From positions 38,453-102,452 of the forward strand of contig JBHLOC010000011.1 in the NCBI GenBank assembly GCA_048940925.1: a DNA stretch of 64,000 nt, written 5' to 3'. The notes beneath the pieces were generated by a model that was not told where the DNA came from, made no database searches, and saw only the letters and a list, made by a program, of their open reading frames with translations. This stretch comes from Promethearchaeota archaeon. GTDB taxonomy: Archaea > Asgardarchaeota > Lokiarchaeia > Sigyniarchaeales > SOKP01. A program made the translations under genes and the position numbers. Shown here piece by piece: positions 9,711-29,423 of the stretch (within the stretch, counting starts at the first letter, position 1; each line of letters opens with the position of its first letter).

Positions 9711-9846
9711 AGAAACTATTTCAGATTAGTAAGAAAAGGAAACTTTTCTGTTTTCCAGTTTGTTAAAGAATATTCTTTTTATTTGGTAATCTTTAGATAT
9801 TCCTCATTATATAAATATATTTTATCGATAAATCCTTGATATAAAT

Positions 9847-9972
9847 ATGGGAGAAGTTACTCAAGAAATGGGAAATTGTGAAGAGTGTGGAGCTGAGATT
9901 AATCTCGCTGAAGCATGGAGAGTAGACGAGAAATATTATTGCCAAAGTTGCTTTGAGAAATTGAACCTTTAA
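9847..9972 (+). CDS. 41-aa CxxC-x17-CxxC zinc-finger microprotein
   Basis: Manual translation MGEVTQEMGNCEECGAEINLAEAWRVDEKYYCQSCFEKLNL*; below the ORF-track size cutoff. Confidence 0.75.
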   Translation: MGEVTQEMGNCEECGAEINLAEAWRVDEKYYCQSCFEKLNL

Positions 9973-18101: not shown

Positions 18102-18569
18102 CTACTCAGGTATAATTATTGAGTGATCCTCTTTTATACGGTCTAAAACAATCTCTGTTTTGACCTCATCTACTCCTGAAAGATTGCGGAGTGTTTCTAT
18201 AAGATCCATGGAGTCTGAATGATCTAGACATTTTGCCATAATGAACAGTGGATATTCTCCAGTAACTACATATGCATATTTTATTTTTTCCATCCCCTCA
18301 ATCTCTTGTTTTAAATGCTCCAATGGTTTTGTAGCATTTACTCTCAGAGATGCCATCACCATTTCTCTATATCCCAATTGATGACAATCGATTAAAGCAA
18401 CATATTTTTTTATTAATTCTTTTTCAAGCCGTTGAATTCGTGCTCTTATCGCAGTAGCACTCTTTTTTGTTTTATGAGCAATTTCTCTTATAGTTAATTT
18501 TGCATCATTTTGTAATAAATCAAGAATTTGACGATCTATATCATCAAGAGTTCCATTTGTTGATACCAT
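18102..18569 (-). CDS. Lrp/AsnC family transcriptional regulator, divergent from the sulfur-relay/Hdr cluster
   Basis: LDDIDRQILDLLQNDAK N-terminal HTH, VVTGEY in the RAM domain. Confidence 0.92.
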   Translation of the reverse strand: MVSTNGTLDDIDRQILDLLQNDAKLTIREIAHKTKKSATAIRARIQRLEKELIKKYVALIDCHQLGYREMVMASLRVNATKPLEHLKQEIEGMEKIKYAYVVTGEYPLFIMAKCLDHSDSMDLIETLRNLSGVDEVKTEIVLDRIKEDHSIIIPE

Positions 18570-18631
18570 AAAATCAATCCTTTTGATAATTTTTCAAGTT
18601 TTATTATTACTAATTATAATATATTAATTTC

Positions 18632-18651
18632 TTACTTTTTTCAAAAAGTAA
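18632..18651. promoter_or_regulatory. Perfect 9-2-9 inverted repeat, candidate Lrp operator
   Basis: TTACTTTTT-tc-AAAAAGTAA in the divergent lrp/tusA intergenic region. Confidence 0.4.
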
Positions 18652-18879
18652 TATATTCTATTTTTAATATATAAGTTTTGATTTATAATTTTTTTCACTA
18701 CTAACTTATATTGCTATAGTTTTATTTGGTTATTAAATTATTTGTTTATAGAAATAAAAACTATGATTTAAATATGATTTTGCATTTTTAACTATTAAAG
18801 TTATCATATGTAAACTATTATGATAACAAAAGTAAAAAAAATAAATAAAAAAACTAAAAAAAGTAAAAATGTGAAAAAA

Positions 18880-19104
18880 ATGGCTGTTCAAACATTTGAT
18901 TATACTGGACTGAAATGTCCAATGCCAGTTTTGAAAACTAAAAAAGAATTAAGAAATTTGGAATCAGGAAAAGTTATAGAAGTAATTGCAGATGATGTTG
19001 GCGCCAAAAAAGATATTCCTGCGTTACTTAACAAATCTGGCGATGAATTGGTTGATATTCGAGAAGATAATGGAAATATAACATTTGTTATTAAGAAAGC
19101 TTAG
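18880..19104 (+). CDS. tusA: TusA/SirA sulfur carrier protein
   Basis: DYTGLKCPMP (CPxP), ADDVGAKKDI. Likely start ATG 18880. Confidence 0.93.
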   Translation: MAVQTFDYTGLKCPMPVLKTKKELRNLESGKVIEVIADDVGAKKDIPALLNKSGDELVDIREDNGNITFVIKKA

Positions 19105-19133
19105 ATCGTACGATATTGAGAGTAGAGATTGCG

Positions 19134-19502
19134 ATGAGTAAATATATTTTCTTTATTAGTACGGAGCCTTACAAGTATCAGTCTATTGACTCTATGATAG
19201 AGCTAGGGAAAGCTGCAATAAGAAAAGGTCATGAAATAAAAGGAATATTCTTCTTTGGAACAGGTGTATACAATCTTAAAAAAGATATTAGTTGTGGAAG
19301 TTCTATTAGAAATATTCCTGAGAAAATCGAACAATTTAGCAGAGAGTACAACATTCCTGTTTCTGGTTGCAGCACTTGGGTGAGTTTAACTGGATTAAAA
19401 GAATCAGAATTCATAGAAGGAGCGACTGAAGAAGGATTAGGAGACCTCTCTAACTGGGCAATAAATGCTGATAAACTTATTGTATTTGGAGCAGGAGGTT
19501 AA
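19134..19502 (+). CDS. dsrE: DsrE/TusD sulfurtransferase subunit
   Basis: EPY, GHEIKGIFFFGTGV, conserved active Cys (GCSTW), GLGDL...ADKLIVF. Confidence 0.85.
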   Translation: MSKYIFFISTEPYKYQSIDSMIELGKAAIRKGHEIKGIFFFGTGVYNLKKDISCGSSIRNIPEKIEQFSREYNIPVSGCSTWVSLTGLKESEFIEGATEEGLGDLSNWAINADKLIVFGAGG

Positions 19503-19507
19503 CTCTT

Positions 19508-19876
19508 ATGGTAGAATCAGTATTAATTATAAGTGATCAATCTCCAATTGGGAGAAATTATGCAATAGAGGCAATTCGCATTGGATCAGGATTTACTGCT
19601 CTCGGAGAATACATTGATTGCAAGGTTGTATTTATGGGAGATGCTATCTATCTGTTCAATAAACATTCTAAACCTGAGAGCGTGGGATTAGATCCATTTA
19701 CAGAAGTTTTAGAGATGGCTGATTTGTCCGATTTAGAGGTATATCTCATTGAGTCTGCTTTAACCGATGTGGGGGTATCAAGGGATGATCTGATTGAATA
19801 TGAAAACTTGAAGATTATCAATTATGATGATTTAGTAGAGTTAATTGCCAATGCTGACACATGTTTTAGATTTTAA
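19508..19876 (+). CDS. dsrF: DsrF/TusC subunit
   Basis: SPIG...EAIR, VFMGDAIY; position between dsrE and dsrH. Confidence 0.82.
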   Translation: MVESVLIISDQSPIGRNYAIEAIRIGSGFTALGEYIDCKVVFMGDAIYLFNKHSKPESVGLDPFTEVLEMADLSDLEVYLIESALTDVGVSRDDLIEYENLKIINYDDLVELIANADTCFRF

Positions 19877-19891
19877 TGGAGGTTGGAAATA

Positions 19892-20233
19892 ATGAACACC
19901 GAACTTGAAATAATTTATTTATTTGGATTTAGCTCAAATACAGGATCTCATTTACGGAGATTATTACCTATTTTAAAAGCTCAACTCAATAAACAAACAA
20001 AACTTGGAATTGTTTTAATTCATGATGGAGTAATTGGTATATCCACAAAGGGAAAAGTATCGAAGCAAATAGAAGATCTGTTAAATTTAGACGTAACTAT
20101 ATTTGCTATGAAGCCTGACATGATGGCTCGCGGAATTGCTCCCGAATTTGCTCAAAATAGAGTCAAATGTATAGAGTATGATAATCTTATAGATCTAATT
20201 GACGCTACACCAAAGATTATATCCTGGATGTAA
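19892..20233 (+). CDS. dsrH: DsrH/TusB subunit
   Basis: LIHDGV, DMMARG, IEYDNLIDLI..ISW; GGAGG SD before ATG 19892. Confidence 0.85.
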   Translation: MNTELEIIYLFGFSSNTGSHLRRLLPILKAQLNKQTKLGIVLIHDGVIGISTKGKVSKQIEDLLNLDVTIFAMKPDMMARGIAPEFAQNRVKCIEYDNLIDLIDATPKIISWM

Positions 20234-20343
20234 GTAATATATAAAAAATCTAAATAAAATATTTTTAAAAACGATCTGGAGTTAACCAGATAAAAAATAA
20301 CTTAAAGTAAATAAATTGGAAAAAAAATTAAAAAACTAAAAAG

Positions 20344-20775
20344 GTGGTATATGTGGCTGAAACAGAAACAATAAATTTTATTGTTAAGGATAAATCATTC
20401 GAAAAGTTCGCAATGATGATGATCCTTGGAACAACAGGTGACGCTATGGATACTAAAATGAATTTTTTCTTTACTTTTTGGGGTTTAAACCTTCTAAAGA
20501 AGAATTTTAAACCTAAAGTTGCTGGGATGCCTGCTCCAATGAAAGGTATGGCAACAAAGATGTTTAAGAAAAGAATGAAAAAATTTGGAATTGAAGATCC
20601 ATGGGGAATGATTAAAGATGCTGTTGATAACGGGAATGTTAAATTATATCCATGTCAAATGACTATGGAGTTAATGGGGATAAAACGGGAAGAATTGCTT
20701 GATTGGGTAGAAGAACCTGTTGGTGCTGCTTCATTTTTAGAAATGAGTAATGGCGGTAGAATAGTAAGTTTATAG
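20344..20775 (+). CDS. DsrE2/DrsE-like sulfur-transfer protein
   Basis: FFFTFWGL, LYPCQMTMELMG (conserved Cys), GAASFL. Start may be GTG 20353. Confidence 0.88.
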   Translation: MVYVAETETINFIVKDKSFEKFAMMMILGTTGDAMDTKMNFFFTFWGLNLLKKNFKPKVAGMPAPMKGMATKMFKKRMKKFGIEDPWGMIKDAVDNGNVKLYPCQMTMELMGIKREELLDWVEEPVGAASFLEMSNGGRIVSL

Positions 20776-20824
20776 ATTTAAACAAAATTTTTTTTATTTT
20801 ATATTTCAAAAATGGTGATGATAA

Positions 20825-21382
20825 ACGTCTGAAGTAAAAGAAGAAATAAGAGAATTTAAAACAGACGAAGATTTTGATACAGAATTTTTTAAAGATATTG
20901 AAAGAAGGTCAAATATTTGGCAGTGCATCCAATGTGGCACATGCACCGCTAGCTGTGAAAGTGGGAGATGGACTGCTTTAAAAACTCGTATAATTGTGAG
21001 AAAAGTTGTTTTAGGAGATTTATCGGTATTAAAAGATCCTGATATTTGGTTGTGTACAACATGTTATCAGTGTTATGAACGATGTCCGCGTGATGTAAGA
21101 CCTACAGATGTAATTATGGAATTGCGAAATTATGCAACTAAGTTGGGTAACATTTCTCCTAATCATAGGGCTGTAGTAGGATATTTAAAGAATTTTGGAC
21201 ATGCTGTTCCAATAAATGAAGAAGTAAGAAAAAGACGAGTTGAATTAGGGTTAGAAGAATTACCCCCTACTGCATTTAGATTTAAACAGGAAGGGGACGA
21301 TAAAGATTTGAAAAATATAGAAGAAAATTTGTTTTATTTACCTCCAATTAAGGAGGGCAAAAAAAGTAAAGAGGAGTCTTAA
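20825..21382 (+). CDS. hdrC: Heterodisulfide reductase subunit C
   Basis: Frame is open 57 codons upstream of the ORF-track GTG and includes CIQCGTCTASC; second motif IWLCTTCYQCYERCPR. Apparent ACG start behind GGTGA. Confidence 0.9.
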   Translation, partial: TSEVKEEIREFKTDEDFDTEFFKDIERRSNIWQCIQCGTCTASCESGRWTALKTRIIVRKVVLGDLSVLKDPDIWLCTTCYQCYERCPRDVRPTDVIMELRNYATKLGNISPNHRAVVGYLKNFGHAVPINEEVRKRRVELGLEELPPTAFRFKQEGDDKDLKNIEENLFYLPPIKEGKKSKEES

Positions 21383-21385
21383 AAT

Positions 21386-22303
21386 ATGACGAAAGAAAAT
21401 ACATTTGCTTTTTTTCTTGGATGTATAATGCCTAATCGATATCCTGCGATTGAAAAAGCGACTAAATTTGTCATGGAAAAGTTAGGATACGAGTTGTTAG
21501 AAATGGAACGTGCGACTTGTTGTCCAGCGCCTGGTGTTTTCCGTTCGTTTAACAAAGTAGATTGGATGGTAACTGCCGCAAGAAATCTATGTATTGCGGA
21601 AAAGTTGGATGCTGATATCTTGACCGTGTGCAATGGATGTTTTGGTACGCTTCAAGAAGTAAATAGGCATTTAAAAGAAAATGAGGAACATCGAGAATTA
21701 GTGAATGAAAGGCTTAAGCTGATTGGTGATTACGAATTTAAAGGGACTATTAACGTTCGACATGTTGCAGAAGTCTTAGGATATGAAGTAGGACCTTGGG
21801 GAATTGAGGATCATATTGTAAGAAAAGTGAATGCTAATGTTGCAGTTCATTACGGTTGTCACTTCTTAAAGCCAACAAGGATACGTGAAATTGAAAGTTC
21901 AGAAAATCCAACTATCATTGAAGAATTTATTGGAGCTTTAGGAGTACAATCAGTTCGATTTAAAGAACAACTTACTTGTTGCGGTGCAGGAGGCGGCGTT
22001 AAGGCATATTCTGGGGATTCAAGTATGACAATTTTCGCAGAGAAAATGAAAAACATTGACGAAGTAAAACCAGACTTCATATTGGATATCTGTCCATTCT
22101 GTCATTTACAATTTGAAACGGGGCAGGATTACTTAAACAAGAATAAAGCATGCAATTACGATTATCCTGTAATTCACCTTTCCCAGCTTGTTGCGTATTG
22201 TATGGGAATGGACCAAGAATTTGTAGGATTACAGTATCAATTAATGGGAAGAGATTATATTTTTGGCGGAGAAGAAGTTAAAAAAGGGGAGGAGGCTATT
22301 TAA
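21386..22303 (+). CDS. hdrB: Heterodisulfide reductase subunit B (two CCG domains)
   Basis: FLGC, CCPAPG, CNGC, HYGCH, CCGAGGG, CPFCHLQ. Confidence 0.96.
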   Translation: MTKENTFAFFLGCIMPNRYPAIEKATKFVMEKLGYELLEMERATCCPAPGVFRSFNKVDWMVTAARNLCIAEKLDADILTVCNGCFGTLQEVNRHLKENEEHRELVNERLKLIGDYEFKGTINVRHVAEVLGYEVGPWGIEDHIVRKVNANVAVHYGCHFLKPTRIREIESSENPTIIEEFIGALGVQSVRFKEQLTCCGAGGGVKAYSGDSSMTIFAEKMKNIDEVKPDFILDICPFCHLQFETGQDYLNKNKACNYDYPVIHLSQLVAYCMGMDQEFVGLQYQLMGRDYIFGGEEVKKGEEAI

Positions 22304-24340
22304 ATGACAATCAAAGAAGAAAAGCTAAAAGAAACAAGCGAAATTCGGAGCGAAATAGAACAAATAAAAGAAGAAGACCCACGAATTGGAGTTTTTATAT
22401 GTCATTGTGGGCATAATATTGCAGGGACCGTTGATGTGGCGGATGTTGCTGAATACGCAAAAACTTTACCCAATGTTGTCAATGCAGAACATTATATGTT
22501 TATGTGCAGTAAACCAGGAGTTCAAATGGTTAAGGATTCTATTAAAGAGTTAGGAGTTAACAGAACAGTAGTGGCATCGTGTTCAAAAAATCAGCACGGA
22601 AGAACATTCGCTAATGCTATTCAAGAAATGGGATTAAACAAACATCGGCACCAGCAGGTAAATATAAGAGAATTTGACAGTTGGGTGCATCAAAAAGAAA
22701 AAGAAAAAGCTACGTTAAAGGCAAAACGATTAGTTGAAGCAGGAGTTAATAGAGCGAGAAAACTAAAGGATGTGGAAACACGTAGAATAGGAACCACAAA
22801 AGCTGCCTTAGTAATTGGTGGGGGTATCGCTGGTCTTCGCGCATCTCACGATCTAGCGGAATTAGGAATTCCAGTCTATCTCATAGAGCGAGAATCAACG
22901 ATAGGAGGTCACATGACCCAATTGAATAAAACATTTCCTACTTTGGAATGTCCACAATGTTCAATATCTCCACTTACTAATGGAGTTGCGAACCATCCAT
23001 TAATCGAACTTTATACGAATGCACAGATAAAAGAAGTTGAAGGCTCGATGGGTAATTTTGAAGTGGCAGTAGAGATTAAACCACGATATATTAAAGATAA
23101 TTGTACTTCATGTGGAGAGTGCGCAATTCATTGTCCAGTGGAAGTTCCTAGTGAGTGGGATAAAGGCATGTCAATGAGACACGCTATTTATAAAGCCTAT
23201 CCACAAGCAATTCCCGCTACTTATGTAAGAGACAAAAAGAATTGTATTGAGTGTAATACTTGCATTAATGTATGTCCCGTACAAGCTGTTGATTTTTCAA
23301 TGCAACCGGAGACCAAAAGGTTTAAAGTAGGCTCAATAGTAGTAGCTGCAGGATACGAAGAATACGATCCTTCAGAGATTGAGCCATATCATTATAAACA
23401 AGAAGGATACGAAAATGTTATAACGCAACTTCAATTAGAACGAATGCTGGCTCCAGGGTCGCTTACTAACAGTCAAGTATTACGCCCATCGGATGCAAAA
23501 GTACCAAAGAATGTGGTAATGATTCAATGCGTAGGAAGCAGAAACGATCAAGTAGGAAACCAATATTGCACTGGTGTTTGTTGTAAATTTGCTGTTAAAA
23601 ACGCAAGAATTGTTAAGGAAATGTATCCTAACACAAATGTTACCATTTGTTATATCGATGTTAGGACACCTGGATTGAATTTCGAGGAACTATACAAGTC
23701 TGCTCAAGAAGTTGGAGTGCGCTTTATTAGAGGGAGACCGTCAGAAATCATTAGAGATCCTGTCTCTGGAGAGTTAAAAGTTAGCGTTGAAGATACCTTA
23801 AGTCAAACACCTTTAAGACTTAAAGGCGATTTAGTTGTACTCTCCGCAGCGATGGTTCCACCACAAGGAATTGGTCCTTTAGGGTCAAAACTACAAGTTC
23901 TAAGGTCAAAAGAAGGATTTCTAAAAGAATTTCATATTAAAATGAATCCTACTTTAAGCAGTAAAGGGGGTATCTTTTTAGCAGGAGCAATTCAAGGACC
24001 GAAAGATATCTCAGAATCGGTTGCTCACGCAGGAAGTGCTGCAGCGATAGCAGCTGCTCCGTTAGTAAAGGGTTATATTGAAAAAGAAATGCTAATCCCG
24101 TCTGTAGATTTAGATTTATGTGTTAGATGTGGACTGTGCAAAACCGTTTGTTCTCCTGCAGCTATTCAAATGAGTGGGGATGGAACGCCCGTGATTAACG
24201 AAGTTGCGTGTAAATCTTGCGGTATGTGCATGCCTGCGTGTCCAACTGGAGCAATACAATTGTTAAATTTTAGTGACGAACAATTATTAGATGAAATAAT
24301 CGCCGTATCAGGCGGAGGTGTTATTTGCGAAAATGAGTGA
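22304..24340 (+). CDS. hdrA: Heterodisulfide reductase subunit A (FAD, Fe-S)
   Basis: IGVFICHCGHNI, VNIRE, GGGIAG, KTFPTLECPQC, inserted and C-terminal 2x[4Fe-4S] domains, QCVGSR, YCTGVCC, QGPKDI. Confidence 0.97.
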   Translation: MTIKEEKLKETSEIRSEIEQIKEEDPRIGVFICHCGHNIAGTVDVADVAEYAKTLPNVVNAEHYMFMCSKPGVQMVKDSIKELGVNRTVVASCSKNQHGRTFANAIQEMGLNKHRHQQVNIREFDSWVHQKEKEKATLKAKRLVEAGVNRARKLKDVETRRIGTTKAALVIGGGIAGLRASHDLAELGIPVYLIERESTIGGHMTQLNKTFPTLECPQCSISPLTNGVANHPLIELYTNAQIKEVEGSMGNFEVAVEIKPRYIKDNCTSCGECAIHCPVEVPSEWDKGMSMRHAIYKAYPQAIPATYVRDKKNCIECNTCINVCPVQAVDFSMQPETKRFKVGSIVVAAGYEEYDPSEIEPYHYKQEGYENVITQLQLERMLAPGSLTNSQVLRPSDAKVPKNVVMIQCVGSRNDQVGNQYCTGVCCKFAVKNARIVKEMYPNTNVTICYIDVRTPGLNFEELYKSAQEVGVRFIRGRPSEIIRDPVSGELKVSVEDTLSQTPLRLKGDLVVLSAAMVPPQGIGPLGSKLQVLRSKEGFLKEFHIKMNPTLSSKGGIFLAGAIQGPKDISESVAHAGSAAAIAAAPLVKGYIEKEMLIPSVDLDLCVRCGLCKTVCSPAAIQMSGDGTPVINEVACKSCGMCMPACPTGAIQLLNFSDEQLLDEIIAVSGGGVICENE

Positions 24341-24785
24341 ATGCGAATATATTGAGCCAGAAGTACTCGAGAAAATGGAAAATATAGTTGTATTTATGTG
24401 TAACGAATGTGGTCAGGGATCAGCAAATACGGCTGGTGTAGCCCGAATGTCCTATAATCCAGCTATACGTATAGTTAGGGTTCAATGTACGGGACAAGTC
24501 GGTCCTATTCAAATAATGGATGCACTTGATAATGGTGCTGATGCTGTGGCCTGCATAGGCTGTTGTTTGGGTGCTTGCCACTTCTTTAACGGTAACATTC
24601 TTTCAATGCACAGAATTAAACTTTTGAAAAAATTATTCAAAGAATTAGGGTATAGCGATCAATTTGTAAATCAGTATACTTCACGAGCCGCGGAAGCAGA
24701 AACTGCGGTTGGGGATTTTGAGGATTTAGTAGAGCGTTTAGCTACAGCAATTAGAGAGGAGGGAACATTTAAAGATGGATGTTAA
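24333..24785 (+). CDS. mvhD: MvhD/FlpD-type [2Fe-2S] subunit
   Basis: FMCNEC, RIVRVQCTG, GADAV..GC..GACHF..GN. ATG 24333 overlaps the hdrA stop. Confidence 0.9.
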   Translation: MSECEYIEPEVLEKMENIVVFMCNECGQGSANTAGVARMSYNPAIRIVRVQCTGQVGPIQIMDALDNGADAVACIGCCLGACHFFNGNILSMHRIKLLKKLFKELGYSDQFVNQYTSRAAEAETAVGDFEDLVERLATAIREEGTFKDGC

Positions 24786-26010
24786 AGTGTTTCAATTTAA
24801 CGGATGCAATAAATGTTTTAATGAAAGCATATTATTGAAAGGTGATTCAAGCTATAAAGTAGAGTTTGTCTCTGATCCCAGAAGTTGGAAAGAGGAAAAA
24901 GCAGATGTCTCTATAATTACTGGTTATCTATTACCGGATGATAAGGAGATATTGAATAAAATAAAATTAAATTCAGATAAAATTATTGCTTATGGGGATT
25001 GTACGACCACAGGAGGAGTCTTTGCCTTATCAAATCAACGAGGACATGAAGTGACGCCATTGCAAGACTTAATTGATGGCGTTATAAATATTAATGGTTG
25101 TTTAGGTGAGATCGAGGAACTTCAATCTGAAATAAAAGGTGAAGAATTACCAAAGTTGAAGAATCTATGCACAGTGTGTGGTCGTAGGAAAACTTGTGAT
25201 TACCTAGAACAAGTTAATCGTCAAATAGAATTAGATGACGAAGAAAAGTGTTTTAATGATCTTGGATACCTATGCAATGGGTTTATTGCTAAAGAATGTA
25301 AAGAACGATGTATAGATTACAATGCTCCATGTCGTGGCTGCAAGCCAACAATTGAACGCTCGGGAATTCGAATGTTAGGGATGTTTGGTACACTAATGGG
25401 TAATATCGAAGTTGCCACAGAACATTCTGAAAAAGGAGCCACAGATAAATTAGCAGATAAAGACGACGAAATTACAGCGAGCTTACCAGATGTAATTGGA
25501 AATTTCTTTAGATTCACACTTCCCAAATCAGGTTTACCTAAAGGGAGGATACCCTCTTCGGGAAGTTTATTAGAGGACGTATTTACGGGTAGATTAATTG
25601 AAGAATTACCATTAATTTCAGGTTTATTAGGTGGAGATCATTCCATATCTTTATCGCTTAAAATTCTGGAAACCTACGAACAAGCTAATAATATAGAAGT
25701 GAGTGAAACAACAAAACTATACAGAAGGAATTTACTGAATTTAGAATCGGAGTTAATAGAAGCAATAAAGGATAAAGATCCTAAGAAGTACAAAGAAGTG
25801 ACTGATAACATTCGAAAAATAGGGGGAAACATGAATTTATCTAATCTATATTATGGGGGATTCAAAACGCAAATTGACGATAAAGATAATTTTGAAGAAT
25901 ATAAAACCCACATTTTTGATGTGGTTGAGGGAACCTATAAAAACGGTTCAGTTGAATTTACGATTGATTCAACGGGTATTGTAAAAAAAATTAAAATAAA
26001 AGAGGGATAA
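24775..26010 (+). CDS. MvhG-like [NiFe]-hydrogenase small-subunit homologue with ~150-aa C-terminal extension
   Basis: GCNKC, AYGDCTTTGG, INGC, CTVC, CFNDLGYLCNG, CRGC, DVIGNFFRFTLP, then the extension. Confidence 0.85.
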   Translation: MDVKVFQFNGCNKCFNESILLKGDSSYKVEFVSDPRSWKEEKADVSIITGYLLPDDKEILNKIKLNSDKIIAYGDCTTTGGVFALSNQRGHEVTPLQDLIDGVININGCLGEIEELQSEIKGEELPKLKNLCTVCGRRKTCDYLEQVNRQIELDDEEKCFNDLGYLCNGFIAKECKERCIDYNAPCRGCKPTIERSGIRMLGMFGTLMGNIEVATEHSEKGATDKLADKDDEITASLPDVIGNFFRFTLPKSGLPKGRIPSSGSLLEDVFTGRLIEELPLISGLLGGDHSISLSLKILETYEQANNIEVSETTKLYRRNLLNLESELIEAIKDKDPKKYKEVTDNIRKIGGNMNLSNLYYGGFKTQIDDKDNFEEYKTHIFDVVEGTYKNGSVEFTIDSTGIVKKIKIKEG

Positions 26011-26012
26011 AC

Positions 26013-28481
26013 ATGAGTTTTGCATTATTAAAAGCTGAAATAGTAGACGCGGGATTGTGTCAAGGGTGTGGATTATGTTCTGGATCTTGTAAGCACATTG
26101 AAATGGAGGTAAGGCGCCCAACTCTTAAAGATTATTGTATTTTAGAGAGAGATGGTCAAGATTGTGGAAAGTGTTATCAATTATGCCCTCAAGTAATCCA
26201 GAAGAAGTTTAAAGAAAAGCAACCGTTAGCAATATATTCCTTGAAAAGTAAAAATCCTGAGATTCTTACCAAAGCTTCTAGTGGAGGATTTGTTACTACT
26301 TTCGTTAAAGAATTATTAGAAAATCAAATCCTTAAGAAAGTTGTCATGGTTAAAGAGGAAGATGAGAAACCAACCGCTGAAATTGTTAGCGATCCGGACG
26401 AAGTAGTTCAGAAAGCGGGAGTCGTTTATGGTAGATCAGGAGTTTTAAAGCGATTAGTTGAAGTAACGGGTGAAACATTTGATCAAATAGGAATCGTTGG
26501 TGTTCCGTGTGAAATGCGTGGAGCTTCTGAAATTGAAGAAGAAATGAAAAGAGATATCTTAAAGATAGGCCTATTTTGTAACTCTCAAATTCGAACTGAA
26601 GAGACAGATAAAGGTTTAGTGTGTTCACCATGCTGTAATAACTGTCCTTCGGGAGTTAATGCTCAAGGGTATATTTCGCTGATACGTCAAGGCAAATATC
26701 AGGAGGCAGTAAATTTAATAAGAGAAAACAATCCACTTCCTTCTATTTGTGGTAGAATTTGTACAAACGAATGCGAATTTGGATGTACTTTGATAGGGGA
26801 TGATCATCCTGTTGCAATTCGAGAATTAAAGAAATTTGTAACAGAATGGGAGATTGAACAAGCAAAAACGACTCCGAAGAAGGGATTAAAATTAAAGAAG
26901 AACGCAAAAAAGGTTGCTATTATAGGTTCTGGTCCCGCAGGACTAACTGCTGCCTTTTATTTAAGAAAAAGAGGATATGCTCCTACTATCTTTGAAAAAA
27001 CCGATAAGACTGGTGGTATGCTACGATTTGGAGTTCCCCAATTTAGATTACCCAACTATGTGTTAGATTACGATGTTCAAAGAATCATAGATTCTGGAGT
27101 TAAAGTAGAGTTTAATAAACCATTAGGGCCTGATATGACAATAGAAGACTTAAAAAATAACGGATATGAAGCTATTTTCATTGCTACTGGTCAATATAAA
27201 CCTCGAACCTTACATTTAGAAGGAGAAGACTTTCCAAATGTATTCGTCGCAATAAATTTTCTAATAGACAGAAAATATCGATATTGGGAAAATAAAGAAG
27301 AATTTAAAGGAAAAACCATTGGTGTAATCGGAGGAGGACCCGTTGCTGTAGATGTTGCTCAAACAGCTCTAAGATTAGGTGCTGAAAAAGTCCATTTAGT
27401 AGACATCATGTCTGAAAAAGAATTAGAATTAGTTTTAAGGGAAATCCCCGAAAATGAAATGGCCTTTATACAATATCATTTCGAGAGTTCCACCTCAAAA
27501 ATCACTCAGAATACTAAGGGTAAATTGTTATTGAATTGCTATAATATCGAATGGGGAATACCGGATGAGAATGGAAGAAAACCCTTGAATAAAGTTGAGA
27601 GTTCTGATTATCAAATCCCTGTTGATATTATAGTGATAGCGGTGGGTCAAGCAGTAGATTTTGACCAAATAGACGATGCAACAAACAATAAATTGGAAAA
27701 AGAGCGAAATAAGATCAAAATAAACGAGATAACTTTTGAAACCAACATACCTGGAGTTTTTGCAGGTGGAGACATCGTTAATAATTCTAAAGCTGTAGCT
27801 ATTGCTGCGATCTCTCACGGAAAAGAGGCAGCAATTTCAATTGATAGGTATCTAAAGGGAGAAAACTTAGTGGATGGGAGATATAAGAGGGTAAATGCAT
27901 TTTTCAGTGGACCTAGAAAACCTCCGAAAGATTACTCCTTAAAACCAGAATCATTAGAAGATGCGACTGAGGAGATGAATTGGTCGTTTGATGAGATAGA
28001 TAAAATATTTAACGAAGATATGGCTCTACAAGAGGCAAGAAGGTGTTTAAGTTGTAATCATTTCTGTTCTCATTGCCAAGATTTCCCCGCAATATATTCA
28101 GATCTTACTGCGGGTGAAGTAGGTTCAAAGAAAGGCTATACTACAGTTGTAGCATGGACTCAACGAGGTAAAGAGCTTGTTGAGAAAGCAGTTGAAAATG
28201 GATTATTTGAACAAGGAAAAGTTGATGAAGAAGAATTAAAAAAGGCAATCAATCTAAAATCAAAACGCAAATTGATTACCTTTGAAAAAACTCCAAGACA
28301 ACAGGTGTTAAACTATATATCACTTCAGGGTCCTAGCACGATTACAAAGATCGCAAGCCAGACAGGTCTTGAACCTAAGAAAGCAAGATATGAAGCCCTG
28401 CGATTAGTTCAATTAATGCAATTAGAAATGAAAGCTGAACCTGATATGGAAGAACCAATATTTTCTATTATATGTGATTAA
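26013..28481 (+). CDS. Fusion: ferredoxin + FrhB/FdhB (F420-binding) domain with inserted GltD/NfnB-like FAD/NAD(P) oxidoreductase + C-terminal winged helix
   Basis: CQGCGLCSGSC, SSGG, GVPCE, IGLFC | PCCNNCP, CGRIC, GSGPAG, GGGPVA, FAGGD, EARRCLSC | CSHCQDF..DLTAGEVGSKKGYTTVVAWTQRG | HTH-like tail. Confidence 0.85.
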   Translation: MSFALLKAEIVDAGLCQGCGLCSGSCKHIEMEVRRPTLKDYCILERDGQDCGKCYQLCPQVIQKKFKEKQPLAIYSLKSKNPEILTKASSGGFVTTFVKELLENQILKKVVMVKEEDEKPTAEIVSDPDEVVQKAGVVYGRSGVLKRLVEVTGETFDQIGIVGVPCEMRGASEIEEEMKRDILKIGLFCNSQIRTEETDKGLVCSPCCNNCPSGVNAQGYISLIRQGKYQEAVNLIRENNPLPSICGRICTNECEFGCTLIGDDHPVAIRELKKFVTEWEIEQAKTTPKKGLKLKKNAKKVAIIGSGPAGLTAAFYLRKRGYAPTIFEKTDKTGGMLRFGVPQFRLPNYVLDYDVQRIIDSGVKVEFNKPLGPDMTIEDLKNNGYEAIFIATGQYKPRTLHLEGEDFPNVFVAINFLIDRKYRYWENKEEFKGKTIGVIGGGPVAVDVAQTALRLGAEKVHLVDIMSEKELELVLREIPENEMAFIQYHFESSTSKITQNTKGKLLLNCYNIEWGIPDENGRKPLNKVESSDYQIPVDIIVIAVGQAVDFDQIDDATNNKLEKERNKIKINEITFETNIPGVFAGGDIVNNSKAVAIAAISHGKEAAISIDRYLKGENLVDGRYKRVNAFFSGPRKPPKDYSLKPESLEDATEEMNWSFDEIDKIFNEDMALQEARRCLSCNHFCSHCQDFPAIYSDLTAGEVGSKKGYTTVVAWTQRGKELVEKAVENGLFEQGKVDEEELKKAINLKSKRKLITFEKTPRQQVLNYISLQGPSTITKIASQTGLEPKKARYEALRLVQLMQLEMKAEPDMEEPIFSIICD

Positions 28482-28521
28482 AAAAATAATTAAAAACAAT
28501 AAATACCAAGAGGTAAAAAAT

Positions 28522-28758
28522 ATGAAATTCGATATGGAATTAAATGTCTGTGGGTCTATATGCCCTGTTCCTGCTTTAAAAACTAAAAAACAACTCATGA
28601 AAATGAGACCTGGAACAGTTTTAAAAGTAATAACAGATTACAAACCCGCTAGTGAATCTGTTCCACGTGATTTGGCAAAAACAAAACATAAGCATTTAGG
28701 AACAGAATATATTGATGATGATGAGCAATGGTATATCTATTTTGAAGCAGTAAAGTAA
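28522..28758 (+). CDS. tusA: Second TusA-family sulfur carrier
   Basis: NVCGSICPVP (CPxP), LKVITD; GAGGT SD before ATG 28522. Confidence 0.9.
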   Translation: MKFDMELNVCGSICPVPALKTKKQLMKMRPGTVLKVITDYKPASESVPRDLAKTKHKHLGTEYIDDDEQWYIYFEAVK

Positions 28759-28811: not shown

Positions 28812-29423
28812 CTATATATTAAAGTAAGAATCTCTTTCTAGGCGACCTTCATATTTTTTAGACACTGCTCTTTTTTCTCTATATAGAATTTCAAGCTCTA
28901 AATTTTCAAATAATTTGTCAGGTTCTTCATCATCAAGATAAGTGTGCATAACCTCCTCATCGTCATAAATTTCAACACATTCACCTGGATTCGGTTCTTT
29001 GCCTTTTCCATAACGGTCTGAATCTTTAGAGAGAAAGTTAACGAAACAGAACCCTCTAGGTTTTAATACCCAAATCATTTCATCTATGCTTTTCTTAATA
29101 TCTTTTTTATTCATATGAAATATAGTGTTCCAAGAGTATATATAGTCGAAATAATTGGATTCAAATGGAATTTTACGCATATCTCCTAGCTGCATATTCA
29201 ATTCCAAGTTATGTTATTTAGCATAATCCTGTGCCATATTAATTCTTTCTTCTAAATGTTCGATGCCGAGTATTTCAAAATCTAATTTAGCAAAAAGTGC
29301 TTGTTTTGGATAGGGTCCACCTGAACCACAATCTAGAATTGGTCCAGTAATATCAGATTCAGATATATAATTTAAAAAGTTGTAAAAAGGGGGAGGATAT
29401 AGCATCTCATTTGGTATGTTCAT
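28812..29423 (-). pseudogene. Class I SAM-dependent methyltransferase interrupted by an in-frame TAA
   Basis: ORFs 29214..29423 and 28812..29207 share one frame: ILDCGSGG...DYAK*HNLELNMQLGDMRKIPFESNYFD...VLKPRG. Confidence 0.8.

Follow-up and report, generated by a model that had tools for sequence, protein, structure and literature searches.

A Lokiarchaeal (Asgard) genome retains a heterodisulfide reductase of the methanogen type whose hydrogenase has decayed to a metal-free stub, whose plausible electron input is an F420/NAD(P)H flavoprotein, and whose genes lie next to those of small sulfur-carrier proteins, which makes carrier-delivered sulfur a testable candidate for the substrate of this enzyme in archaea that make no methane. 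The locus occupies positions 18102 to 28758 of the stretch of DNA that we analyzed (the window: 64,000 nucleotides of contig JBHLOC010000011.1, assembly GCA_048940925.1, from a Promethearchaeota archaeon) and comprises a divergent lrp gene followed by tusA, dsrE, dsrF, dsrH, dsrE2, hdrC, hdrB, hdrA, mvhD, an mvhG-like gene, a gene for an FrhB protein with a GltD/NfnB insert, and a second tusA gene. That a hydrogenase-less HdrABC-MvhD complex is encoded between two TusA carriers, with all carrier cysteines intact, had been proposed from the sequence alone, and our analysis bears this observation out. The accompanying interpretation, that of a distinct Asgard system exchanging electrons between F420H2/NADH, ferredoxin, and protein-bound persulfide or disulfide, is only partly supported by the data.

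Gene content of the locus

Searches with Pfam and NCBIfam models confirmed every gene, and the genes from hdrC to the FrhB-GltD gene abut or overlap. The Fe-S cysteines are intact, and the carrier cysteines are both present and invariant in relatives. Four points of the original prediction required correction: hdrC contains no ATG, GTG, or TTG codon before its first [4Fe-4S] motif, and its frame opens at an ACG codon; tusA2 most likely starts at ATG 28522 rather than GTG 28474; the mvhG-like gene carries a dead relic of MvhA; and this type of cluster is not confined to Asgard archaea.

Features of the locus (positions in the window) and the evidence for their assignment
Feature	Position	Strand	Characteristics and evidence
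lrp	18102-18569	-	Lrp/AsnC-family regulator, divergent from the carrier genes; Pfam HTH_AsnC + AsnC_trans_reg; C62 and C114 invariant from Loki to Thor; at a module boundary in every cluster variant
tusA1	18820-19104	+	Sulfur carrier, CPMP motif; PF01206, 86.9 bits; Cys33 invariant; median identity 55%; relatives align from residue 21 onward, and the real start may be the ATG at 18880
dsrE	19116-19502	+	With dsrF and dsrH, a TusBCD/DsrEFH-type sulfur-transfer trio (PF02635 twice and PF04077), all three far below the TusBCD equivalog cut-offs; Cys85 kept in 49/49
dsrF	19508-19876	+	Member of the trio; Cys38 kept in 50/51
dsrH	19883-20233	+	Member of the trio
dsrE2	20344-20775	+	DsrE2-family carrier; PF13686, 92 bits; Cys104 in a PCQMT motif, kept in 58/58; median identity 81%
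hdrC	20825-21382	+	Two [4Fe-4S] motifs; TIGR03290, 173 bits (cut-off, 160); starts at ACG 20825 directly after a TAA stop and a GGTGAT ribosome-binding-like motif; same codon position ATG in 28 and ACG in 16 of 52 relatives; all eight Cys invariant
hdrB	21386-22303	+	Methanogen type; two CCG domains (PF02754 twice) for two non-cubane [4Fe-4S] clusters; TIGR03288, 375.8 bits (cut-off, 345); E 6e-92 to PDB 5ODC_B
hdrA	22304-24340	+	Full-length bifurcating flavoprotein with N-terminal, inserted, and C-terminal ferredoxin domains (Pfam); NCBIfam HdrA2/HdrA models, 737/618 bits, below their cut-offs; 27 conserved Cys
mvhD	24318-24785	+	MvhD/FlpD, [2Fe-2S] connector to HdrA; PF02662, 110 bits; median identity 84%
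mvhG-like (mvhG')	24775-26010	+	Oxidored_q6 (PF01058) Fe-S wire, 13 invariant Cys in residues 1-189; matches MvhG chains 9SW2_E and 5ODC_E
Relic of [NiFe] large subunit	25528-26010	+	Cysteine-free C-terminal part of the MvhG-like protein, residues about 252-411
frhB::gltD	26013-28481	+	822 aa; Pfam FrhB_FdhB_N, Fer4_20, Pyr_redox_2, FrhB_FdhB_C; FrhB-type F420 flavoprotein split by a roughly 495-residue NfnB/GltD-type NAD(P)H-FAD-[4Fe-4S] insert, with a winged-helix tail; PDB matches to NfnB/GltD (E 1e-87 to 1e-52) and to FrhB/Fsr
tusA2	28522-28758	+	78 aa, CPVP motif; PF01206; most conserved carrier and the one present in every cluster variant; median identity 87%, Cys invariant

The loss of the hydrogenase was apparent from a structural model of the C-terminal part of the MvhG-like protein (pLDDT 91). 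When it was compared with known structures by VIA-align, the top 15 hits were all large subunits or complex I homologues, with Z scores of 9.5 to 13.4; 5ODC_F gave a Z score of 12.2 and an rmsd of 2.5 A over 148 residues, and the next fold scored only 5.4. The FrhB/GltD flavoprotein is the plausible point of entry for F420H2 or NAD(P)H, and the plain FrhB of Methermicoccus aligns to its residues 1-189 and 685-800. The original prediction had called for a check of the genome for F420 synthesis, CoM/CoB synthesis, DsrC, and MnmA. F420 synthesis genes are present, with CofH scoring over its equivalog cut-off and a CofG-like gene and CofE also found, but no ComA, no DsrC/TusE, and no true MnmA (only weak PP-loop hits) were detected in this genome, which is estimated to be 100% complete. 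The absence of mvhA, fdhA, lbpA, dsrC, dsrAB, and mnmA, claimed for the window, was upheld there and mostly extends to the whole genome: no NIR_SIR sulfite reductase was found, [NiFe] large subunits and molybdopterin enzymes are encoded only on other contigs (the former on two, C48 and C85), and the two GcvH genes lie on C62, in a glycine-cleavage context, and on C3. The locus is neither an sHdr system nor a DsrC or TusE/MnmA relay.

Conservation of the association between carriers and Hdr

Lack of synteny in relatives had been named in advance as grounds for rejecting the prediction, but the 12-gene order is kept in 68 Promethearchaeota species genomes, including those of the cultured MK-D1 and Lokiarchaeum ossiferum, and the ortholog is present in 72 genomes of the order, including 63/135 of the family. 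The association persists through at least four different gene orders. In MK-D1 and L. ossiferum, lrp lies between dsrE2 and hdrC; in Thorarchaeota, the arrangement is lrp | hdrCBA-mvhD-mvhG'-frhB-tusA-dsrEFH; in a further variant, designated L127, it is dsrE2-lrp-hdr...-tusA; and in the methanogen Methermicoccus, it is dsrE-dsrE-hdrCBA-mvhD-mvhG'-frhB-tusA. TusA2 lies inside the hdr module, is translationally close to it in every variant, and follows the input module in Thorarchaeota, Methermicoccus, and L127. TusA2 and DsrE2 are as conserved as the Hdr core (84 to 88%). A phylogeny of HdrB, also suggested beforehand as a test, placed the carrier-linked Loki, L127, and Thor proteins in one clade (SH-aLRT 99 on a quick tree), with Methermicoccus as its sister with weaker support (81), and HdrB groups with methanogen HdrB. 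Published RNA data for Methermicoccus show that TusA, both DsrE genes, and the hdr/frh genes rise and fall together, while the flanking genes do not.

Other observations speak against the reading favored below. The cluster is missing from about half of the related genomes, several of them nearly complete, and is thus accessory. One genome (designated G240) has cleanly deleted hdrC through most of tusA2 yet keeps lrp-tusA1-dsrEFH-dsrE2, so the carriers can stand without the enzyme. Separate transcription of the carrier and hdr genes had likewise been named as evidence against the prediction; the 49-nt dsrE2-hdrC spacer holds a T-run and a TATA-like box in the window and its relatives, and the two modules may therefore be separate transcripts, although no Asgard expression data, and no biochemical data, were found.

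Interpretation and alternative explanations

We tentatively favor a two-module locus under an Lrp-type regulator. In this view, the first module (hdrCBA-mvhD-mvhG'-frhB::gltD-tusA2) would build a cytoplasmic, flavin-based electron-bifurcating heterodisulfide reductase of methanogen type that no longer uses H2, in which MvhG survives as a three-cluster Fe-S wire capped by a nickel-free remnant of MvhA. Electrons would enter as hydride from F420H2 at the FrhB part of the 822-aa subunit, with NAD(P)H able to enter or leave at the NfnB/GltD insert in Lokiarchaeales, and would pass over MvhG' and MvhD to the HdrA flavin, where they would split, one going uphill to ferredoxin and one downhill over HdrC to the two non-cubane clusters of HdrB. 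The second module (tusA1-dsrEFH-dsrE2), together with tusA2, would pick up sulfane sulfur as cysteine persulfides, likely from polysulfide/S0 or cysteine desulfuration, and hand it towards HdrB, where an S-S bond holding that sulfur would be reduced, with release of H2S and regeneration of a thiol. Because the HdrB pocket still looks like the CoM/CoB pocket, we consider a small anionic thiol carrying the sulfur (a persulfide or mixed disulfide) to be at least as likely to enter it as the carrier protein itself. The net effect would be that a fermenting, syntrophic archaeon reoxidizes F420H2/NAD(P)H on a sulfur sink and gains reduced ferredoxin. The gene content, its conservation, the loss of the hydrogenase site, the FrhB-type input, and the covariation of RNA levels in Methermicoccus are established by the data; the electron donor, bifurcation itself, the sulfur substrate, and the direction of the reaction are inferred, and nothing shows that a protein-bound persulfide is the substrate of HdrB.

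The strongest competing explanation, which we regard as possible but less likely, is that HdrB reduces a low-molecular-weight mixed disulfide similar to CoM-S-S-CoB (CoM-S-S-CoB itself in Methermicoccus and an unknown thiol pair in Loki and Thor), with the TusA/DsrE proteins in a supporting role, for example, putting the thiol sulfur into that cofactor or supplying sulfur for other syntheses, rather than delivering the substrate. Both HdrB and HdrC pass the corresponding equivalog models, that of HdrB being the CoB-CoM model; HdrB is about 50% identical to solved methanogen HdrB; and it keeps five of six named CoM/CoB contact positions, R18, G50, G203, K206, and F238 being the counterparts of R14, G46, G198, R201, and F233, which hold CoM and CoB in 5ODR. 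The sixth position also varies among methanogens, whereas the paralogue beside the real MvhAG in the same genome has lost four of the six. The presence of the homologous cluster in a true methanogen that has CoM-S-S-CoB points the same way. However, the genome lacks ComA, Lokiarchaeia are not known to make CoM or CoB (a point not tested further here), and a purely biosynthetic role explains neither why carriers follow this one Hdr lineage through several rearrangements nor why TusA2 is as conserved as HdrB.

The remaining possibilities appear unlikely. The two modules may be neighbors without shared chemistry, held together only by shared Lrp regulation, with the carriers serving tRNA thiolation, molybdopterin, or Fe-S synthesis and the Hdr complex acting as a general F420H2/NAD(P)H-ferredoxin redox balancer with some other acceptor; the G240 deletion, which removes only the Hdr module, the likely internal promoter and T-run before hdrC, and stand-alone tusA-dsrE2 pairs elsewhere in some genomes are compatible with this view, but there is no TusE/DsrC or true MnmA to receive sulfur from DsrEFH, and the position of TusA2 and the persistence of the association across Loki, Thor, and Methermicoccus, with covarying RNA levels, argue against it. 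A role in reductive sulfur assimilation, in which thiosulfate, sulfite-derived sulfur, or sulfane sulfur is turned into sulfide for biosynthesis in place of the missing sulfite reductase, as proposed for Nerearchaeum, is about as doubtful: a second locus joins TusA and DsrE to NifS/NifU, but absence of the cluster from about half of close relatives would be odd for an essential route, no YeeE/YedE thiosulfate importer was found, the habitats are typically sulfidic, and a bifurcating enzyme of this size is costly for a trace need. Least likely is operation in the oxidative direction, with carrier-bound sulfane sulfur oxidized at HdrB and electrons leaving to NAD(P)+ or F420. TusA and DsrE-family carriers do feed the sulfur-oxidizing sHdr complex in bacteria and Sulfolobales (PMC11094781), but there is here one HdrB and one HdrC, no lipoate-binding protein lies in or near the cluster (the GcvH gene outside the glycine-cleavage context being unrelated), HdrB groups with methanogen HdrB, and the hosts are strict anaerobic fermenters.

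Relationship to known systems

The general idea is not new: a 2025 preprint on Nerearchaeum marumarumayae (bioRxiv 10.1101/2025.07.22.663070) proposed that a cytosolic Hdr of an Asgard archaeon reduces TusA- and DsrE-bound persulfides, but only as a figure-legend hypothesis with H2 via the group 3c hydrogenase as donor and sulfur assimilation as the purpose, and it does not describe the hydrogenase-free cluster, its synteny, or its FrhB/GltD input. The sHdr-LbpA sulfur-oxidizing system, with its TusA/DsrE3/rhodanese cascade (PMC11094781, PMC6067878), also has TusA and DsrE-family carriers encoded beside an Hdr-like complex to which they deliver sulfur, but its order is hdrC1B1A-hyp-C2B2, its HdrA is short, it has no MvhD, its lipoate-binding proteins are obligatory, and it works oxidatively; none of these features is present here. 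The DsrEFH-DsrC and TusBCD-TusE-MnmA relays share a DsrE/F/H trio with the active-site cysteine of DsrE and TusA as the upstream donor, but they differ in their DsrC/TusE acceptor, DsrAB, and MnmA, which are missing from this genome.

The Lokiarchaeal complex, as yet uncharacterized, is a heterodisulfide reductase of the methanogen type. In comparison with MvhAGD-HdrABC of hydrogenotrophic methanogens (PDB 5ODC/5ODR, 9SW2), HdrB, HdrC, HdrA, and MvhD are clear homologues, MvhG is retained with its three clusters, and the same subunit order of electron flow can be assumed, but MvhA is reduced to a 160-residue cysteine-free relic fused to MvhG, so there is no H2 site, an FrhB/GltD flavoprotein is added, five sulfur-carrier genes are attached, and the host is not a methanogen. 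That the same cluster might already have been characterized had also been anticipated as an objection. The homologous cluster of Methermicoccus shengliensis (hdrC2B2A2-mvhD-frhG-frhB1, flanked by TusA and two DsrE genes; Amam_01016-01024) was published as FrhBG-HdrA2B2C2, a putative F420:CoB-S-S-CoM oxidoreductase (Kurth et al. 2021, PMC8630106), and the claim of a distinct Asgard system thus fails; its HdrB is 57% identical to that of the window, and it is expressed in culture, but it has a plain FrhB without the GltD insert, its host makes CoM and CoB, the authors assigned it to CoM-S-S-CoB reduction without discussing the flanking carriers, and its activity is untested there too. Hydrogenase-free, F420H2-driven Hdr has precedents in HdrA2B2C2 of Methanosarcina acetivorans (Yan et al. 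2017) and in ElpABC-HdrABC of Methanothermobacter marburgensis (Nomura et al. 2025, PMC12350162). In the latter, as here, an FrhB/FdhB-type subunit, which in Elp oxidizes F420H2, is combined with an MvhD-type connector and a truncated, cofactor-free remnant of the former catalytic subunit, which serves as a scaffold; however, that remnant derives from FdhA, whereas the one described here derives from MvhA and is fused to MvhG, and Elp, which has neither a GltD/NfnB insert nor TusA/DsrE genes, acts on CoM-S-S-CoB, as shown biochemically and by cryo-EM.

Gene content, gene starts and conservation of the locus

Listing of ORFs, combined with Pfam and NCBIfam scans, confirmed the gene content described in the original prediction. 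The locus lies in a 4.8-Mb Promethearchaeota (Lokiarchaeia) genome with about 30% G+C (coordinates of it and of the other features discussed are collected in the table below), and lrp is followed on the plus strand by tusA1, dsrE, dsrF, dsrH, dsrE2, hdrC, hdrB, hdrA, mvhD, a gene for a 411-aa protein with an N-terminal hydrogenase small-subunit domain (MvhG'), a gene for an 822-aa protein built as FrhB_N, Fer4_20, Pyr_redox_2 and FrhB_C (FrhB::GltD), and tusA2, which closes the run. From hdrC to the gene for the 822-aa protein, neighboring genes overlap or lie 0 to 3 nt apart; tusA1-dsrEFH is similarly tight, and dsrE2 stands between two short spacers of 110 and 49 nt. Downstream lie two adjacent short ORFs of 131 and 69 aa, the first of which holds only the C-terminal half of a class I methyltransferase domain and is possibly part of a disrupted gene. 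The Lrp/AsnC regulator keeps two cysteines (C62 and C114) in every variant from Loki to Thor, which hints at thiol- or persulfide-based sensing; this is not a usual feature of the family.

Two gene starts required correction. The hdrC frame has no ATG, GTG or TTG before its first [4Fe-4S] motif and opens with ACG, directly after a TAA stop and a GGTGAT motif; the same codon position is ATG in 28 relatives and ACG in 16 of 52, so this is a recurrent feature, probably a genuine but weak non-canonical start that lowers HdrC translation, and not an assembly error. The tusA2 gene most likely begins at an internal ATG, giving 78 aa; the upstream extension runs into a stop in MK-D1 and in another relative (locus L039), and a selenocysteine reading of these stops was rejected, as they lie upstream of the true ATG.

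Coordinates of features of the locus and of related loci
Feature	Sequence	Position	Strand
Region analyzed	Source genome (G000), contig C55	38453-102452	
lrp	Window	18102-18569	minus
Start region of hdrC (TAA, GGTGAT motif, ACG)	Window	20812-20830	
hdrC start codon (ACG)	Window	20825	plus
Relatives with ACG at the hdrC start	L023, L025, L029, L030, L034, L038, L042, L050, L051, L053, L055, L058, L059, L063, L073, L089		
C-terminal large-subunit relic of MvhG'	Window	25528-26010	plus
tusA2 start codon (ATG)	Window	28522	plus
Two adjacent short ORFs	Window	28812-29423	minus
Second sulfur locus (L018)	Source genome (G000), contig C7	146900-155500	
Electron-input subunit, Thor locus	L115	10781-11824	
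Electron-input subunit, Methermicoccus-type contig	L126	11196-12377	
Electron-input subunit, 36% G+C contig	L127	6251-6685	
hdrC-tusA2 deletion junction	L135, genome G240	9812-9960	minus
Stand-alone tusA-dsrE2 pair	L131	9700-10370	
Stand-alone tusA-dsrE2 pair	L132	9650-10376	
Stand-alone tusA-dsrE2 pair	L062	321-1000	
HdrB, 89% identical to that of the window	Genome G073, contig C137	8242-9156	

Synteny of the carrier and hdr genes in relatives, on which the original prediction had staked its reading, was borne out. A scan of one genome per species with HdrB returned 68 Promethearchaeota loci with HdrB of 65 to 90% identity, the next best hits being Methanobacteriaceae HdrB at about 49%, without sulfur genes. 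Mapping of the window's proteins onto those loci shows the whole order lrp | tusA1-dsrEFH-dsrE2-hdrCBA-mvhD-mvhG'-frhB::gltD-tusA2 wherever the contig is long enough, and these loci include Promethearchaeum syntrophicum MK-D1, Lokiarchaeum ossiferum and Sigynarchaeum; in MK-D1 and L. ossiferum, lrp sits between dsrE2 and hdrC. A phylum-wide search found the ortholog (65% identity or more) in 72 genomes of the window's order, among them 63 of 135 in its family and 7 of 14 in the family of MK-D1, but it is missing from several nearly complete genomes, so the cluster is widespread but accessory. One genome from a different family of the phylum (G073) holds an HdrB 89% identical to that of the window, through either a mis-binned Loki contig or a recent transfer. 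An exhaustive representative search with HdrB added paralogue clusters but no context, and a homolog search with MvhG' returned only close Loki relatives. Every Fe-S cysteine and every carrier active-site cysteine is invariant.

Median identity of relatives' proteins to those of the window
Protein	Median identity
HdrB, HdrC	88%
TusA2	87%
HdrA, MvhD	84%
DsrE2	81%
FrhB::GltD	78%
MvhG'	72%
DsrE	71%
DsrF	66%
DsrH	59%
TusA1	55%

Nine genomes of another large family, placed in Thorarchaeota by the names attached to near-identical proteins, have HdrB at 51 to 56% identity. The Thorarchaeota order is lrp | hdrCBA-mvhD-mvhG' (419 aa)-frhB (347 aa, plain)-tusA-dsrEFH, sometimes with further DsrE genes. 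The contig L127 (36% G+C) reads dsrE2-lrp-hdrCBA-mvhD-mvhG'-(144-aa ferredoxin plus winged helix)-tusA. A 263-kb metagenome contig, L126, reads dsrE-dsrE-hdrCBA-mvhD-mvhG'-frhB-tusA; its lysyl-tRNA synthetase is 93% identical to that of Methermicoccus shengliensis, and its gene order, including the Fae/Hps neighbor, matches Amam_01015-01024 of that methanogen. The electron-input subunit is therefore exchangeable between lineages: Thor and Methermicoccus have a plain FrhB, L127 has a 144-aa remnant keeping only the N-terminal ferredoxin part and the winged-helix tail, and Lokiarchaeales have FrhB with the GltD/NfnB insert. A TusA of the tusA2 type and at least one DsrE-family carrier stay attached in most variants, although two Thor loci show TusA only. 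The HdrB phylogeny, proposed at the outset as a test against methanogen and sHdr sequences, was addressed by a quick maximum-likelihood tree that contained no sHdr sequences; it puts the carrier-linked Loki, L127 and Thor HdrBs in one clade (SH-aLRT 99), with Methermicoccus as its sister with weak support (81) and Methanobacteriaceae next, and the other HdrB paralogue of the window genome lies far away.

Hydrogenase relic, electron input and sulfur-related genes

The genome has true [NiFe] large subunits only on contigs C48 and C85, and on C48 mvhG-mvhA-hdrC-hdrB form a separate locus; no PF00374 hit was found on the contig of the window, and no true MvhA lies adjacent to the cluster in the 21 kb of the MK-D1 locus that was examined. 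The 411-aa MvhG' protein aligns to MvhG of solved Mvh-Hdr complexes and keeps 13 invariant cysteines, enough for three clusters, but it has no cysteine after residue 189. Its last 160 residues, modelled alone (pLDDT 91), match the [NiFe] large-subunit fold in a structural alignment with VIA-align: the top 15 chains are all large subunits or their complex I/Mbh/Mbs homologues (Z 9.5-13.4; Z 12-13 to MvhA, FrhA and others), MvhA 5ODC_F gives Z 12.2 and an rmsd of 2.5 A over 148 residues, and the next fold scores Z 5.4. Foldseek gave no match at E <= 0.001 for the same C-terminal model, although its top ten rows were all hydrogenase large subunits, and with the whole MvhG' model it matched only small subunits because residues 129-255 were modelled poorly. 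The segment is a metal-free relic of MvhA fused to MvhG, and it is conserved from Loki to Thor and Methermicoccus.

The 822-aa protein is an FrhB whose two halves (residues 1-189 and 685-800) align to the plain FrhB of Methermicoccus, with a roughly 495-residue NfnB/GltD-type module between them. Genes for F420 synthesis, which were to be sought in the genome as a check on the original prediction, are present: CofH scores above its equivalog cut-off, and a CofG-like neighbor and two CofE genes are encoded. F420H2 is thus a plausible donor in all variants that have an FrhB, with NAD(P)H added in Lokiarchaeales; this is an inference from domain content, and F420H2 oxidation was not assayed, whereas the FrhB-type domains themselves (FrhB_FdhB_N and FrhB_FdhB_C), encoded together with hdrABC and mvhD as in the F420H2-dependent, hydrogenase-free Hdr of the Elp-Hdr/HdrA2B2C2 type, were found directly.

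The same genome-wide check, which had also called for a search for CoM/CoB synthesis, dsrC and mnmA, returned no DsrC/TusE (no PF04358 hit), no ComA and only weak PP-loop hits for MnmA (PF03054) in a genome estimated to be 100% complete with 8% contamination; no NIR_SIR sulfite reductase and no YeeE/YedE were found in it either. Its two GcvH-family genes lie on other contigs and are unrelated to the cluster, one between gcvT and gcvP and the other beside MptE-like and NAD kinase genes. The usual DsrEFH and TusBCD acceptors, and the sHdr hallmark LbpA, are therefore missing. A second sulfur locus in the genome (L018) holds, in order, a B12-binding protein, TusA and DsrE, a NifS-type cysteine desulfurase and a NifU-like protein, an HdrD-like CCG/ferredoxin protein, a 796-aa CoA-disulfide-reductase-rhodanese-TusA fusion, and rubrerythrin and desulfoferrodoxin. 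The genome as a whole yields 53 CCG-domain matches, roughly 27 HdrB/HdrD/GlpC-like proteins, an unusually large family for a non-methanogen.

Possible substrates and the link between carriers and Hdr

The HdrB protein passes the CoB-CoM HdrB equivalog model and is about 50% identical to solved methanogen HdrB. A 2026 study names the contacts of CoM and CoB in 5ODR as Arg14, Gly46, Gly198, Arg201, Phe233 and Arg240; the window has R18, G50, G203, K206, F238 and T245 at these positions, of which the first five are invariant or Lys/Arg in 31 Loki and Thor sequences, and the sixth is Val in Methanobacteriaceae as well. The paralogue beside the real hydrogenase has lost four of the six. This argues that a small anionic thiol compound, not a folded carrier protein, enters the pocket, and it keeps in play a CoM-S-S-CoB-like disulfide as the substrate. 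A predicted complex of HdrB with TusA2, a type of model that had been suggested beforehand as a test, scored 0.00, gave no answer and is no evidence either way. Activity on CoM-S-S-CoB was not assayed here; the contact residues are largely kept, but the genome has no ComA.

Separate transcription of carriers and hdr genes had been named in advance as an outcome that would count against a shared system, and we found it to be possible: the dsrE2-hdrC spacer carries a T-run followed by a TATA-like box in the window and its relatives. No RNA runs were listed for window positions 18800-28758, but RNA levels from a relative are available in Table S2 of Kurth et al. (2021) for all M. shengliensis genes. 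TusA (Amam_01016), FrhB1, FrhG, MvhD, HdrA2B2C2, a "predicted peroxiredoxin" (DsrE2-like, 01023) and "TusD" (01024) are all low in strain AmaM (about 0.06-0.45) and several-fold higher in strain ZC-1 on methanol (0.6-1.4), and each drops by roughly a third to 60% on trimethoxybenzoate (0.24-0.87), whereas the flanking Fae/Hps gene and Amam_01025 behave differently. The modules are separable, since in genome G240 a natural deletion fuses the first four codons of hdrC in frame to the C-terminal 35 or so codons of tusA2 and removes everything between, while lrp-tusA1-dsrEFH-dsrE2 stays intact. An apparent loss of the hdr module in another genome (G189) was rejected as evidence because it is a run of N at a scaffold gap, and four more genomes with DsrE2 but no HdrB ortholog proved to be contig ends. 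Some Loki genomes also carry a stand-alone tusA-dsrE2 pair, a paralogue of the cluster's carriers, away from or beside the main cluster.

The observation that sulfur-carrier genes and a hydrogenase-free HdrABC-MvhD complex share this locus is thus confirmed, and we regard as only partly supported the interpretation that a bifurcating Hdr exchanges electrons between F420H2/NADH, ferredoxin and protein-bound persulfide or disulfide. We tentatively suggest, as the most likely reading but one held with less than even confidence, that the cluster encodes an F420H2/NAD(P)H-driven, ferredoxin-reducing Hdr that reduces an S-S bond holding carrier-delivered sulfane sulfur. Reduction of a CoM-S-S-CoB-like small disulfide, with the carriers in a supporting role, is less likely but a serious rival. 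A further reading, also less likely, is that carrier-delivered sulfane sulfur is the physiological acceptor of this Hdr lineage, which would make it a flavin-based electron-bifurcating sulfur reductase (F420H2 or NAD(P)H plus S0/persulfide giving H2S plus reduced ferredoxin); this would be a new energy-conserving electron sink for syntrophic Asgard archaea and could also be the never-identified sulfur-reducing activity of some methanogens.

HdrABC is central to published metabolic models of Asgard archaea, the closest known relatives of eukaryotes, yet these organisms are not known to make CoM-S-S-CoB, so that nobody knows what the enzyme reduces. The cluster, present in the cultured strains MK-D1 and L. 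ossiferum, ties one specific, highly conserved Hdr lineage to five sulfur carriers and removes H2 from the picture, and this brings the question within reach of experiments with defined proteins and available cultures. If sulfur is the acceptor, Asgard fermenters would have a sulfur-linked, ferredoxin-yielding electron sink, which bears on hydrogen/sulfur syntrophy models of eukaryogenesis and on sulfur cycling in anoxic sediments; if the acceptor is instead a small thiol disulfide, Asgard archaea would possess an unknown CoM/CoB-like cofactor pair, which would be equally notable.

Relation to known Hdr and sulfur relay systems

A prior characterization of the cluster would also have counted against the original prediction, and no paper in the library searched describes it; a Desulfurivibrio paper and a selenoprotein review were not relevant. 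The MK-D1 paper treats Hdr only as part of MvhADG-HdrABC. A 2025 preprint on Nerearchaeum proposes, in a figure legend, that Hdr reduces TusA- and DsrE-bound persulfides with H2 as donor. Kurth et al. (2021) named the Methermicoccus enzyme FrhBG-HdrA2B2C2, a putative ferredoxin-dependent F420:CoB-S-S-CoM oxidoreductase, and did not discuss the carriers.

The defining features of known systems were compared with the cluster in turn. The DsrEFH/TusBCD relay is represented by the DsrE/F/H trio (PF02635 twice and PF04077), in which DsrE Cys85 is kept in 49/49 sequences, although scores are far below the equivalog cut-offs; of the downstream proteins, neither an acceptor of the DsrC or TusE type nor DsrAB or a true MnmA was found in the genome. 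The sHdr-LbpA sulfur oxidation system has the arrangement hdrC1B1A-hyp-hdrC2B2 and an associated lipoate-binding protein, whereas the window has a single hdrC, hdrB and hdrA in the order CBA followed by mvhD, and no LbpA.

The subunit features of the methanogen-type bifurcating HdrABC-MvhD are present. HdrB has two CCG motifs (PF02754 twice) that bind two non-cubane [4Fe-4S] clusters, and scores 375.8 against a cut-off of 345 for TIGR03288, with ten motif cysteines invariant in 68 sequences. HdrC, with two [4Fe-4S] motifs and eight invariant cysteines, scores 173 against a cut-off of 160 for TIGR03290 when read from the ACG, the first motif being included only if translation starts at this non-canonical codon. 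HdrA has the Pfam domains and conserved cysteines of a full-length protein (FAD, N-terminal cluster domain, inserted and C-terminal ferredoxin domains) and aligns to the HdrA/HdrA2 models over residues 27-668, but its scores fall below the curated cut-offs; MvhD is identified by PF02662. The large subunit of the group 3c [NiFe] hydrogenase MvhAG, with its N- and C-terminal cysteine pairs that bind Ni-Fe, is lacking, and the cysteine-free relic that stands in its place parallels ElpA, the cofactor-free FdhA remnant of the F420H2-driven ElpABC-HdrABC complex of Methanothermobacter.
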